Positions 9,798-58,105 of a stretch of DNA of 64,000 nucleotides are shown one piece after another. Source of the stretch: Octopus vulgaris (taxonomy: Eukaryota). The position numbers and the translations under genes were made by a program. Below the pieces are notes generated by a model. That model ran no database searches, was not told where the DNA came from, and saw only the letters and a list, made by a program, of their open reading frames with translations. The stretch is taken from the NCBI GenBank assembly GCA_951406725.2, contig OX597816.1, positions 156,488,001 to 156,552,000 of the forward strand, given 5' to 3'. Each line of letters opens with the position of its first letter. The stretch's first letter is position 1.

Positions 9798-9861
9798 TTG
9801 CACTGAAGAGTAAAAAGTGCATGATATTGGACCGATTACGAAATCACAATGTGATATGCGG
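9798..9861 (+). ncRNA. Type I hammerhead ribozyme, canonical core
   Basis: ttgca-CTGAAGA-gtaa...ttac-GAAA-tcaca.a.tgtga-TA-tgcgg. Stems I, II and III all pair. AUA site, predicted cleavage after 9856. Confidence 0.75.
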
Positions 9862-11227
9862 CTAAGTTCTGTTTTTAAATGACCTGCTTCGAGAATAGTT
9901 TCGGTACGATGTGTTTATGCATTTTAGTAGTTTTGACTTTAAGAGTCCCTCTTAGCGTGAGGCATCTATGTGTAATAGTGTCCTCTATATAATATAAATA
10001 AATAAATTTAAAAGAAAAAAAATTGATTTTTTCTCTGGGGACGTTTTCACGCTAACTACTTGGTAAATTCTTATGAAGAATTTATCCTATTTTTAAATTT
10101 TATATATATATATATATATATATACAAAAGTCGCCATACATATGAACAATTTATTATTTTTTTAAAGAAGAAAACAGTTTATAAGAACGTTTTATTTATT
10201 CAACAGGCCCTATATGGTTACCATTGTCTTCACTAAACTTTGCAATACGTTTACCCTACTCATTGTGAATTCATAATAGCACTTGATAGCTATTGTTGTT
10301 GATACATGGAGACATATATATATATACATACATACATACATACACACATACATATATATATACATACATACATACATACATACACACATATATATATACA
10401 TACATACATACATACATACATACATATATATATATATATATATATATATATATATATATATATATATATATGGAGGATACGTGAATTTTTATTGATCATT
10501 ACAATTCTTTCCTCGCATCTGACACTGATCTCTCGCGGGATTCTGAACATCTGGTTTAGGTGTATGTCTCTGTGTAGATGTGTTTTATCGGGTGATTTCG
10601 ATAGGTATCACGTTAAAATAAACTCTACTTCGCAACATTTTTTCTTGTTCTTCGTATATAGAAGTGGCAAATTAAGGGATGTGTGCGTGTGTGTTGTATA
10701 TATATATATATATATATATATATATATTCCCCATATGCAATTTAACATGTCCAAACGTTGCCTAGCATGCATTTCGCTCTCTTCCTTTTTTGTCTGTTCT
10801 TCGTCTGTTTTCTTCATTCATCTCTTGGATCCCAAATGCCAAATACTTTCTGCCATTTTTCCACGGCGTCAAACAAATATACTGTTTGTTATTCATTAAC
10901 CACTCTGTGTTTATAGAACTACACACACACACATATATATATATATATATATATATATATATATATATATATATATATATAGATAGATAGATAGATAGAT
11001 AGATAGATAGATAGATAGATAGATAGATAGATAGATAGATAGATAGATATACATACATTTATATATGTATAAATACATACATTTATATATATATACATAC
11101 ATATATATATGTATATAATAACATGTATATACACACATGCACACACAAAAGAAATTTTATCCACTAATGAGGTGTTGAAAACTCTCATATATAAACACAC
11201 ACACAAGCTAACACATTCACACATATA

Positions 11228-11425
11228 TTGAAAACAAGGAGGCAGACAGAATTTTGGGTAATTTTGGATAATTAGCGCTTTCGTTCGTTTACTGAGCTGT
11301 TCAAGGCAAGAATTAAAACTAAAACCGTTTTGATTTTAATTTTTTATCTTGAAGAGTTCGGTGAAACGAACGAAAACGCTAATAAGGAATTATCCAAAAT
11401 TCTCACTGCTTCGTTTTTTTTTCAA
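11228..11425. repeat. ~200-bp imperfect palindrome with an HHR-like motif in each arm
   Basis: Arms mirror around ~11325. Right arm: ttat-CTTGAAGA-gttcg...cgaac-GAAA-acgc-TA-ataa. Left arm (reverse complement): GAAA-gcgc-TA. Confidence 0.6.
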
Positions 11426-11685
11426 TATACAATATCGGTGTACCACTTGAAGCACTGTGTGTGTGTGTGTGTGTGTGTGTGTGTGAGAGAGAGAGAGAGA
11501 GAGAGAGAGCGTATATAATCTGAAGAAAGATTTGACAATGAATTCGCTCATTTACGCCGACGATATTTTGCGTAATGTGGGCGTTCTAAGTATCAATAAA
11601 TACTTACAACTCTACATTCATCTGTGTATGTATAAATACATATATGCATATATAATATAAATATAAATATAAGTACATATATATA

Positions 11686-11914
11686 CAGCTTTGACCAAAA
11701 TTTAGCAGACAATTAGCCAAAACTATTTACATCCAAGATATATTTATGTTTAACAACTGAATGCATTTAACAAAAAGCATCTAAATATGAAACACGATGA
11801 AAATCTTTCAAACTGAAGTCCTTCTTCAGCGACACATATTTGCATTCCAGTCAATACATAATTACAGATTTATGGAATTTTGATTTACTGTCGGATGACT
11901 TTTGGCCAACCCTG
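11686..11914. mobile_element. Tc1/mariner-type MITE
   Basis: Imperfect TIRs cagctttgaccaaaatttagcagaca / tgtcggatgacttttggccaaccctg, flanked by TA on both sides. Confidence 0.55.
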
Positions 11915-55285: not shown

Positions 55286-55699
55286 TATATGTGTATGCAT
55301 ATATATATATATATATATATATATATATATATATATATATATACATATGTGTGTGCATGTGTGTGTATGTATATATATATATATATATATATATATATAT
55401 ATTTATATACATATGTGTGTGCATGTGTGTGTATGTATATATATATATATATACAGCGGGCTACTTTCAGTTTCCATCCACAAAATCTACTCACAAGGTA
55501 TTGGTCAGCTCGAGGCTACAGTGGGACTGAACTCGGAGCCATTGGTTCGGAAGCAACCTTGTTACGACAAAGCCACGATTCCATCTCTATGTATATGCAT
55601 ACATACATGCATACGTGTGTTTATGTGTGTATACACATGCATATTAGAAAGTATATAGGTGCACATGATATTTCCATGCCTCCAATATTTGTGAGATTG

Positions 55700-56640
55700 A
55701 TGACTTTAATGCTCTGTTTACACTGTTGTTGATGTTGATCTGCAAGGTAACATGAGTAGGGAGGATAAACCTGCATAATGGGGATGATCCAATAGCTATA
55801 CAGTTTTGTGTCGTGAAAGAGTGTGTGGTTACACTAAATTTGCGGAGAGGTGGGTGGATGTGTGAGACAGAGGTGCCTGTTTCTTGGAGCTATGTAACCA
55901 AACAACTCTGTGGAATAGACTCCATTATACTACCGACACAAGACAAAGAGATTGGTGAGAGCACCGTTGTGAGTCTGATGTTGGAGATTATCAGTTAGTG
56001 AAGATGTGTGAATCAGCTGAATGTCTCATCTCCACAGCTGGTATTGGATTTCCCTAAAGTGGAAACAATACTCTATTGTAGTCCTCTCTTGAGCTTTGTA
56101 GAATGTCAGCATGTTGGGCGTTGAAATATCATCTGGCTCTAAAGAGATATGCTATGTTAAACATATGCAGTCACCAAAAGAAATTCTTCAGTATTTGGAG
56201 TAACTATAATGGCTCTTGTTAAGTGTCTCTCTCTCGTTTAGATGCGATGTAGTGCAGTGATTCATTTTACTAGATGAGTTACGCATGAGAAATTTTAGCT
56301 AAGTGCCTATGTTGGCATGGCTTCACTAAATTAGATACTCTCAAGATGTATGTAAATAGAATCAATGAATAGGGAGCGTTAGAGAGGAAACAAGGGTCAT
56401 ATCATTTGCAAATAGATGGCCGTTGTTGGAGCAAGTAAATCAATGATGTATAAGTGGAATAGAGTTGGGGGGACAAAACACAAGCCTGGGCATATCAGAA
56501 TTGATTGGGAACAAGGCAAAAAAACGAGCTTATGAGAATCTGTTAATCCAGACGAAAGATGTGTGGAGCCCGTAGGCTAGAACCACTGACAGGAGATCTG
56601 CTTGATAATTATGCATGAAAATTATGCAAAGATTACATGT
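55700..56640 (-). mobile_element. Very old LINE RT remnant
   Basis: Minus strand LFANDMT (YADD-like) at ~56395-56415, preceded by a degenerate GVPQGSVL-like segment. Confidence 0.35.
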
Positions 56641-57419
56641 CTTCAAATGTCAGCCAGTTACAGGTTAATTTACGAACAGGTTATTCAGTTTATTGAACGA
56701 ATGAATACTAATTGTCGAACGTCGATGAACCATCACTGCGTGTTTCTGTATGCTTGTGTGTGGAATGGAAAATCACAATACATACATGCATACACACACA
56801 TACACACAATACATAAGTAGGTAGAAAGAAGTAGATAGATAGATAGATAGATAGATAGATAGATAGATAGATAGATAGATAGATAGATAGATAGATAGAT
56901 TGAGAGATATGCATACATATTTATATATTGCGGATTCGTTAACAGAGCTGGTTATTCACGTTACAGTCTGTTACATAATATAAACATAGGAATTTAATCT
57001 GAAACTGCATATATAAAACTAATTAAATTTAATTAGCTGCATTGGACAGACGTAAACGGCTATAATATTTACACAAGCATTAATGAATATACTGCTAATA
57101 CGCACATAATCTATTTAATTGAACCAGCTGCCAAAAATATGTCAAATGTTCTAATCTGTATACCTGTTTCATAATGAGCTTCATGATAAAAGATTTAAAT
57201 ATATTTTAAGAGCGTTGAGTCAGTAAGTGGTGTTTGATTTGAAAATAAATACGATCAAAACTATCTTCAAGTTGATACCGTATCTTCTGTGCACGGTGAA
57301 ATTATATAAAATATCAGTAGTCTGCCATTCTATTACATTTTAGTTATTGGGTTATCAGATAATTTCCATTGTTAATACAGTTCTAAGAGAGATGAGTAAT
57401 TATGTAGATTATTTACCTT

Positions 57420-58105
57420 ATTTACATTTGACGGATATTTGTCATCATCTTTTTTGTTGTTAACACAACGTTTCGGCTGATATACTCTCCAGCCTTCTTC
57501 AGCTGTTCTGGGGAAATTTCGAACCTGGGTTCTCATACCTCAGGTATATTTCGATGTTATTATTATTGTCACTGCCTGGAATAAAACTCGGAATCCTGGG
57601 GTTAGTAGCCCGCGCTCTTAACCTTTACGCCATTCATTATGGAATGAATTTTAGGACTTATAAATCTAATATTTTCCTATCCTTCCTTAATACTGGTTCC
57701 CATATGCTACTCATATTTCCAGTAGGCGTGCTTAGGAGTTTTTTATGCCCTGGCTTATATGCTGCTTCAATTACTTTTCGTATTTTCCATTGGTGTTCTC
57801 TGCCTATTATTTTAACTTCATCTCAGAGGGAGAGGTGCTCTCAGTTTTTTCATACATGATTAACTATACCCGATTTATCAATATCTCCCCGTGTCACAGT
57901 TTTGCGATGTTCCTCTACACTTATTGTGAGGGGGCGGCATGTTTCGCCTATGTATAACCTTCCACAGCTGCATGGAATGAAGTACACGAAGTCTTTGGCC
58001 ATATTATCTTCTATTGGTGGTTTTACTCGGAGATATTTGCGAAGTGTTGCATTACTTTTGAATGCTGTCCTGATGTTATATTGGTTGCATATCTTTTGTT
58101 TCTTT
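57420..58105 (-). mobile_element. 5'-truncated Penelope-like element (GIY-YIG, tRNA-like module, HHR)
   Basis: KICNQYNIRTAFKSN...FVYFIPCSCGRLYIGETCRPL...EEHRK...KSGIVNHV. The 3' end gacaaatatccgtcaaatgtaaataa is shared with 9039-9064. Confidence 0.88.
57462..57507 (-). ncRNA. Minimal type I hammerhead in PLE 3' end
   Basis: Minus strand aacag-CTGAAGA-a-ggctg gagagtatat cagcc-GAA-ACGT-T-gtgtt. One stem I mismatch, GUU site. Confidence 0.7.

Follow-up and report, generated by a model that had tools for sequence, protein, structure and literature searches.

The DNA analyzed here is a 64,000-nt stretch of the Octopus vulgaris genome (OX597816.1:156,488,001-156,552,000), referred to as the window; all coordinates are window positions. 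Its GC content is 35%, and it is laden with microsatellites, with about 20% of its length masked as short tandem repeat. An initial annotation had described about 10 loci with type I hammerhead ribozymes in this stretch. Hammerhead-like letters were found at all 13 of the sites concerned, including (i) five intact folds (9798, 32178, 40416, 48675, and 49341); (ii) one near-intact fold (57462); (iii) six decayed folds (11343, 12917, 25730, 29706, 31570, and 48051); and (iv) one doubtful site (39919). Since 25730/29706 and 48675/49341 are paired arms (96% and 95% identical, respectively), each of these two fold-backs is a single event and the 13 sites represent 11 insertions. Only four insertions are intact and one near-intact, so the number of ribozyme loci had been overstated. 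Leaving the doubtful site aside, the folds (10 insertions) are most likely the 3′ pseudo-long terminal repeat (pseudo-LTR) ends of 5′-truncated Penelope-like elements (PLEs), Neptune-like and Poseidon-like, inserted into TA microsatellites. Seen directly are the folds themselves, three sites located 3′ of GIY-YIG endonuclease remnants, 3′ ends lying against TA arrays, and head-to-head fold-backs. The hammerhead-bearing features are as follows:

9798..9861 (+): intact type I hammerhead with canonical core; cleavage position after A9856; stem I of 5 bp, stem II of 4 bp enclosing a 30-nt region, and a near-palindromic 5-bp stem III; TA array 245 nt downstream
11266..11389 (both strands): decayed head-to-head pair, 11282(-)/11343(+); 8-nt core CUUGAASA, stem II GUUCG/CGAAC, stem III AGCGCU; 11343(+) combines the 8-nt core with one stem III mismatch
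12915..13016 (-): decayed hammerhead 12917; core letters intact, U.U at 10.1/11.1 (base of stem II), 71-nt hairpin stem II, palindromic stem III, stem I of 2 bp
25640..29772 (both strands): head-to-head fold-back of two 5′-truncated, putatively Neptune-like PLE copies; 62 nt between the arms, which are 96% identical; TA-rich arrays at both ends
25730..25780 (-): left-arm hammerhead of this fold-back; G5C lesion; stem I of 6 bp within the pair; stem III of 4 bp with a loop of 8 nt
29706..29756 (+): right-arm hammerhead; A15.1G lesion; TA array 41 nt downstream
31572..31646 (-): decayed hammerhead 31570; 5′ core half intact, extra A before G12, 45-nt hairpin stem II (z -3.9), stem III one mismatch off a palindrome, poor stem I
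32178..32215 (+): minimal hammerhead, intact, with U3-A8 in the core and the palindrome ACCGGU as stem III; a TA array follows 58 nt downstream
39919..39977 (+): doubtful site; stem II fails to close and the core has two changes
40315..40450 (-): intact minimal hammerhead (40450-40416) with 106-nt 3′ end; stem III ACGU; extra A between positions 9 and 10.1; abuts a TA array
47537..47736 (both strands): another decayed pair of the 11343 family, also head to head: 47600(-)/47674(+)
47912..48404 (+): element with 93-bp inverted ends and a decayed hammerhead (C3 at 48051, G5A, 50-nt stem II, stem III ACGCGCGU, weak stem I); read as an inverted 5′-truncated copy; ends at a TA array
48571..49578 (both strands): head-to-head fold-back without an open reading frame (ORF); arms 95% identical
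48675-48801 (-) and 49341-49468 (+): hammerheads in both arms of the preceding fold-back; C4 core CCGAAGA, stem II a hairpin of 100/101 nt (z about -3), and ACAGCUGU as stem III
57462..57507 (-): minimal hammerhead, near-intact, with H17=U, an additional A at 9/10.1, and G.G as first stem I pair

Hammerhead folds and their frequency in shuffled sequence

A three-way junction with open stem I was examined at each site and found to have perfect stems of at least 3 bp at 5 of the 13 sites, or 6 when one mismatch was allowed. The core (C3-U4-G5-A6-N7-G8-A9, G12-A13-A14, A15.1-U16.1, and H17) was canonical with complete pairing at two sites (9798 and 40416), carried U3-A8 at 32178 and C4 at 48675/49341, and was intact in its letters at 57462, 12917, and 31570; the core consensus was broken at 25730, 29706, 48051, 39919, and 11343. 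Stem III was a perfect palindrome at seven sites, a near-palindrome at four, and an ordinary 4-bp hairpin with an 8-nt loop at two (25730/29706), which supports the proposed reading of these motifs as minimal and type I, with a palindrome in stem III. When read site by site, the stems were unlike between families yet paired, and self-comparison of the window joined almost no sites to one another, as expected for the many unrelated families of the initial annotation. The long segments between A9 and G12 folded as hairpins closing at or beside the core, with z-scores of -1.8 to -3.9 for 12917, 48051, 48675, 49341, and 31570 and -1.0 for 9798, values that are biased high by the preselection of these segments for pairing. 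The palindromic stems III have predicted self-duplexes of -1.7 to -12.8 kcal/mol, and at 32178 stems I and II of the hammerhead make up the minimum-energy prediction itself. Three motifs, 11282(-) and the pair 47600(-)/47674(+), had not been part of the initial annotation.

Descriptor searches were compared with dinucleotide shuffles of the window. A canonical descriptor, limited to the CUGANGA core and controlled by 25 shuffles in 500-nt blocks, detected two sites (9798+ and 40416-) versus 0.04 in the shuffles. A wider descriptor that allowed U3-A8 and C4 cores and stem II regions of up to 130 nt detected five sites (9798, 32178, 40416, 48675, and 49341) versus a mean of 0.15 and a maximum of 1 in 40 shuffles; with one mismatch per stem, 57462 was added to give six sites versus 0.50 (maximum 2, 40 shuffles). 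The variants of the wider descriptor were chosen after the sites had been read, so this test was not blind and the canonical-core comparison is the cleaner one. At the loosest setting 11 matches were obtained versus 4.35, a count of 11 being reached by 1 of the 40 shuffles, and loose matches alone are thus unreliable; a count of 3′ halves only gave 24 versus 11.5, or about twofold. It is this loosest setting, together with site 39919 (probably a chance match) and the silence of Rfam, that speaks for most sites being chance matches in AT-rich, repeat-rich DNA. We find that explanation barely credible, as the strict settings exceed their shuffles, the different core lesions of the partner copies 25730 and 29706 complement each other to one full motif, and chance is already refuted for the five to six best sites. 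Both scans had been suggested with the initial annotation: the shuffle comparison came out in its favor at the strict settings, and the Rfam scan yielded no hammerhead match in the window at the gathering score. In a scan by E-value, all of the matches listed (150 of 500) were to microsatellite (miRNA models and one viral untranslated region model), with none to a hammerhead. Minimal hammerhead variants have been published through relaxed descriptors rather than Rfam (PMC4209133).

Several half-formed motifs were also noted. A second CTGANGA word lies about 40 nt past the cleavage site in each arm of 47537-47736 (47559 - and 47715 +), with partner stems absent; a type II/III hammerhead built from CUGANGA words downstream of this pair was rejected by hand, as its stems I and II were unpaired. 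Half-sites composed of GAAA and the palindrome ACATGT behind a hairpin occur at 31140-31215 and 31020-31110 (-) and at 31820-31883 (+), within an element at 30998-31883 that has 64-bp inverted ends, TA arrays on both sides, and other insertions interrupting it. The stretch 12148-12513 has 93-bp inverted ends beside a TA array and a 3′ half-site (GAAA plus AGCT) at 12279(-) with no recognizable 5′ core. A small fold-back at 12684-12765 has arms CTGAAGA/CTCAAGA facing outward, no GAAA half, and a right arm ending at a TA array, while at 50470-50515 (-) CTGAAGA is followed by a GC-rich near-palindrome that forms a hairpin with the core itself, again with no GAAA half. The doubtful site 39919 is flanked by a 48-bp direct repeat (90% identical; 39674-39721 and 40147-40194), possibly the ends of another small element.

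Penelope-like coding remnants and inverted pairs

The coding remnants of PLE type found in the window were:

27393..27761 (-): left arm; C-terminal end of a Neptune-like GIY-YIG endonuclease
27722..28210 (+): right arm; Neptune-like, with a putative zinc-finger remnant of the linker and the C-terminal end of the GIY-YIG endonuclease (endonuclease part 27767-28210)
57676..58110 (-): remnant of a Poseidon/Penelope-like GIY-YIG endonuclease
32512..32697 (-): weak remnant of a Neptune-like endonuclease (E 2.5e-7 by profile); candidate link only to hammerhead 31570
8176..9070 (+): second Poseidon-like 3′ piece, hammerhead deleted; 83% identity with the 57-kb copy

The remnants at 27393-27761, 27767-28210, and 57676-58110 read toward hammerheads 25730, 29706, and 57462, respectively. 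The last of these hammerheads lies 209 nt 3′ of its endonuclease; in the Neptune-like copy the distance from endonuclease to cleavage site is 1,540-1,657 nt. Longer relatives of the Neptune-like fragment were sought by a word-based protein search, in which none of 102 candidates qualified; a HMMER search recovered 3,669 relatives with an E-value of 0.001 or less. The match of the 27.7-kb fragment falls at the C-terminal end of long proteins, an example being P0100 (713 aa; 38% over a 130-aa stretch). In P0100 and P0133 an RT (reverse transcriptase) motif, YRDDGL in P0100, and a cysteine linker were recognized by eye ahead of the endonuclease; the last two cysteines of the linker remnant align to P0100, and the position of the first falls beyond the truncation. 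This order corresponds to the published Neptune/Nematis layout of RT, cysteine linker, and C-terminal GIY-YIG endonuclease (PMC8557442), and by these motifs the 25640-29772 element may be Neptune-like, with Nematis a further candidate. Naiad was considered for this element and rejected, as the endonuclease of the relatives is C-terminal with a 3′ region after it. For the 57.8-kb endonuclease fragment, one of five relatives is from Octopus vulgaris (80%, with 27% of the query covered). Comparison of P0100 with PDB sequences gave no match, a protein scan of viral contigs confirmed none of eight candidates, and exact-pattern scans for the 48675 family and the local short interspersed element (SINE) found no stretch in metagenome or prokaryote genome contigs. 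Comparison of the two Poseidon-like copies (9015-9067 versus 57415-57550) showed that about 85 nt with the whole hammerhead is gone from the 8176-9070 copy, the deletion ends sharing a 4-nt microhomology. The intact 57-kb copy has a splice-donor-like word at the left edge; plain deletion is the better fit to the letters.

Four symmetric fold-backs were identified, each with an outward-reading hammerhead in both arms: 25714-29772, 48571-49578, 11274-11380, and 47537-47736. The first has a one-sided tail of about 75 nt, present on the left arm only (25640-25713) before the TA-rich array. The Neptune-like element also holds about 1.2 kb of mixed TA/CA microsatellite inside its own 3′ region in both arms (26122-27338 and 28270-29363). 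Neither a direct pseudo-LTR tandem (pLTR-ORF-pLTR) nor a full-length copy is present in the window, as expected for truncated copies. Inverted 5′-truncated copies, optional tails, and a microsatellite bias are known for PLEs (PMC8557442), and head-to-head PLE palindromes have been published with self-priming on an antisense template as an alternative origin (PMC3846280). The endonuclease remnants 5′ of hammerheads, the inverted truncated copies, and the agreement with published PLE traits bear out the link to PLEs drawn in the initial annotation. The hammerheads are real, partly decayed, and most likely of PLE origin, and the published PLE-hammerhead pattern is hereby extended to octopus.

Short elements with inverted ends (47912-48404, 30998-31883, and 12148-12513) could instead be miniature inverted-repeat (MITE-type) DNA transposons at TA, with the hammerhead-like letters as passengers or chance. 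Their 64-93 bp inverted ends lie beside TA arrays, Tc1/mariner remnants are present in the window, and TA is the target of Tc1/mariner elements. We hold this origin to be highly improbable: it leaves unexplained both the sites joined to endonuclease remnants and the symmetric fold-backs, and inverted 5′-truncated PLE copies would look the same (PMC8557442).

Position relative to TA arrays

The distance from the motif to the nearest TA array was evaluated for 11 loci. When direction was ignored, the proximity to (TA)n suggested by the initial annotation was weak for arrays of (TA)5 or longer (median 212 versus 396 nt, p=0.083; p=0.032 for (TA)10 or longer); when only the downstream side was considered, it was clear (212 versus 764 nt, p=0.003; 246 versus 1040 nt, p=0.001, respectively). 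For reference, 40% of the unmasked window positions are no farther than 300 nt from a TA array. Four of the five descriptor-found insertions have an array at most 250 nt downstream (p=0.005, with the threshold picked after the data had been seen). The exception is the Poseidon-like 57462, whose next downstream array is about 2 kb away. Two short pieces represent the 3′ ends of hammerhead families found elsewhere in the window:

18616..18690 (+): 3′-terminal 75-bp piece belonging to the 40416 family, with a TA array on either side; its end base is that of the longer copy
32324..32376 (+): 3′-terminal 53-bp piece of the 31570 family, flanked by TA arrays

The 40416 element and the 18616-18690 piece place the same terminal base against TA.

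Truncated PLEs or nonautonomous families

Several points weigh against the assignment of these insertions to truncated PLEs: (i) a PLE coding remnant is directly joined to a hammerhead in only 2 of the 11 insertions (3 of the 13 sites); (ii) no RT remnant was found anywhere in the window; (iii) Pfam named neither the endonuclease fragments nor eight long relatives, which leaves the clade labels based on visual reading of motifs; (iv) for four of the six best sites, the monomer is predicted to have a fold 3-10 kcal/mol more stable than the hammerhead (at 9798, a competing fold is favored by 4.7 kcal/mol); (v) the fold-back at 9561-9695, upstream of 9798, spans only the 5′ part, with no second hammerhead; and (vi) alignments for covariation within families hold 2-4 copies at most. 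The first point, that 9 of the 11 insertions have no adjoining coding remnant, would also fit some ORF-less sites being true nonautonomous families that use PLE proteins, either as PLE-dependent units resembling SINEs or as solo retrozymes, in line with the separate noncoding families of the initial annotation. The ORF-less arms of 48571-49578 measure about 500 nt, and both nonautonomous PLE derivatives (PMC8557442) and solo retrozymes (bioRxiv 2026.07.22.740005) have been published. However, more than 1.5 kb of noncoding DNA precedes the Neptune-like hammerhead, and as the other pieces are shorter on their 5′ side than its endonuclease-to-cleavage gap, truncation alone explains the missing ORFs and the separate families are not supported; moreover, no common 5′ boundary is demonstrable among copies. 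A retrozyme origin likewise found no backing, since none of the 147 tandem-repeat rows of the window contains a hammerhead (the 168- and 186-nt tandems are SINE copies). We therefore consider nonautonomous families unlikely overall and possible for single sites, and retain 5′-truncated PLEs as the source of the insertions.

Other repeats in the window

One SINE forms eight clusters (5237-5749, 13912-14124, 19330-19561, 34608-34984, 35372-35934, 37693-37891, 51733-52358, and 63860-64000), some as head-to-tail dimers or trimers with periods of 168 and 186 and with no hammerhead found within; seven matches to a 32-nt stretch were obtained within three mismatches. We take this SINE to be an octopus repeat. 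A tRNA search of the window found none. Tc1/mariner transposase remnants lie at 54497-55272 and 61904-62976, with a Pfam DUF4817 helix-turn-helix at 54904-55272 and mariner-like words in 62344-62976; this mariner-type domain was the only one named by Pfam over 11 window fragments. Long interspersed element 3′ remnants, CR1- and RTE-like by eye, occur at 7224-8086, 29943-30864, and 23987-24400, with 29943-30180 repeated at 30626-30864.

Density and unusual cores

DNA of PLE type, with rough boundaries, amounts to about 9.3 kb (about 15% of the window), or 5.2 kb (8%) without the 4-kb fold-back. In O. vulgaris, 190 PLE families, 31 of them recently active, make up 6.83% of the genome (PMC13282606), which predicts 4.4 kb per 64 kb and places the window near expectation. 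Intact insertions number 4 per 64 kb, or 62 per Mb (95% confidence interval 17-160), and canonical cores only 31 per Mb (4-113). Published hammerhead counts, set over genome sizes, correspond to about 6-15 per Mb. These counts are about 2,000 plus 1,300 for Schistosoma mansoni and 9,000 for Xenopus tropicalis (PMC4209133), and more than 6,000 for Acropora millepora (PMC7229834). Octopus may thus be several times denser in hammerheads than the published genomes, a comparison based on one window picked for its motifs and scanned with a wider descriptor than the published counts.

Unusual cores were found in two forms. The C4 core is present in both arms of 48571-49578, which is one event, and so is possibly private. 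The YUUGANRA core, one base longer than usual, is present in three of the four copies of the 11343 family; when read in the 8-nt register, 11343 keeps C-G and 47640a keeps U-A at the 3/8 positions, with better stem I pairing. This pattern, which was built from these very sites, gave two matches in the window versus 0.22 in 100 shuffles (maximum 2). Insertions near C3 give low activity (PMC3088659). A literature search for hammerheads with CUUGA found no natural such core among the papers listed, as judged by titles and abstract openings, and searches naming octopus found no paper on octopus hammerheads, though supplements of PLE papers may list octopus elements with hammerheads. The word 'ribozyme' is absent from the available text of the O. 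vulgaris repeat paper (PMC13282606). Density, stem II extensions of up to 101 nt, and the odd cores (C4 and the 8-nt YUUGANRA) may be mildly new.

We tentatively extend these findings to octopus genomes as holding among the densest animal hammerhead repertoires, with intact motifs on the order of 100,000 in well over 100 PLE families, largely missed by standard descriptors on account of stem II regions of 30-100 nt and working noncanonical cores (C4, 8-nt YUUGANRA, and U.U at the stem II base); we regard this proposal as doubtful. In one published search for the core, spacers were set at 7-17 nt (PMC8557442). If the density held genome-wide, octopus would amount to a natural library of hammerhead variants of very large size, with thousands of paired insertions for testing a two-start, two-strand model of PLE integration.

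Proposed mechanism

Such a model would start with the PLE RT-endonuclease nicking a TA target. Reverse transcription would begin about 40-320 nt downstream of the hammerhead and mostly stop early, so that the hammerhead would be the part copied most and short ORF-less pieces would be left. Nicking and extension of both strands from two start sites would generate the inverted pairs and the tail. A Poseidon protein cuts and extends both DNA strands in vitro and uses two internal RT starts downstream of the hammerhead (PMC11167929); two such starts would explain the one-sided tail. In the tandem transcript of a parent element, two minimal hammerheads would pair via the palindromic stem III and cleave slowly, minimal hammerheads being known for weak cleavage as dimers (PMC4209133; review PMC6765202). 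A fold-back transcript would carry a single sense motif only, its motifs being on opposite strands, and would fold into a long duplex. As judged from their sequences, most copies at these loci are likely inert because they are solitary or on opposite strands, half of them with core or stem lesions; cleavage is unlikely, perhaps except for 9798 with its 5-bp stem III. Hammerhead cleavage is dispensable for insertion in vitro (PMC11167929), which places the in vivo role of PLE hammerheads in question.

Comparison with known systems

The published minimal hammerheads of PLEs have an extra base at 9/10.1, a U3-A8 core, and opposite-strand pairs 100-700 bp apart, and are mostly single motifs from truncated PLEs (PMC4209133). 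The octopus motifs resemble them in being type I with a stem I of 3-6 bp and a palindromic stem III, in forming many unrelated families per genome, in the extra base at 9/10.1 (40416 and 57462) and U3-A8 (32178), and in their opposite-strand pairs and mostly single, dispersed motifs. They differ in (i) stem II regions of 30-101 nt at 6 of the 13 sites, compared with a helix of 7-8 bp (PMC4209133); (ii) the C4 core of one insertion and the 8-nt core of one family; and (iii) U.U at 10.1/11.1 in two families, compared with a highly conserved G-C (PMC4209133). Similar to Neptune (PMC8557442), the 25640-29772 element has a putative cysteine linker remnant, a C-terminal endonuclease, and a hammerhead near its 3′ end, and it is an inverted 5′-truncated pair with a one-sided tail in a TA-rich target. 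Unlike Neptune, only the last 150 aa are left and the 3′ region contains the 1.2-kb TA/CA-rich microsatellite; its tail of about 75 nt compares with a published 30-40 nt (PMC8557442). As in the Penelope/Poseidon element PAc of Anolis (PMC11167929), the 57462 hammerhead follows, at 209 nt, an endonuclease whose GIY-YIG motif encloses two cysteines, and the element ends 40-320 nt past the cut site, as expected from internal RT starts; unlike PAc, 57462 has H17=U and a G.G first stem I pair. Finally, animal non-LTR retrozymes share type I hammerheads in noncoding AT-rich DNA and a proposed PLE origin (PMC7229834; bioRxiv 2026.07.22.740005). These, however, are head-to-tail tandems of about 300 bp (PMC7229834; bioRxiv 2026.07.22.740005), whereas none of the hammerheads in the window lies in a tandem repeat.

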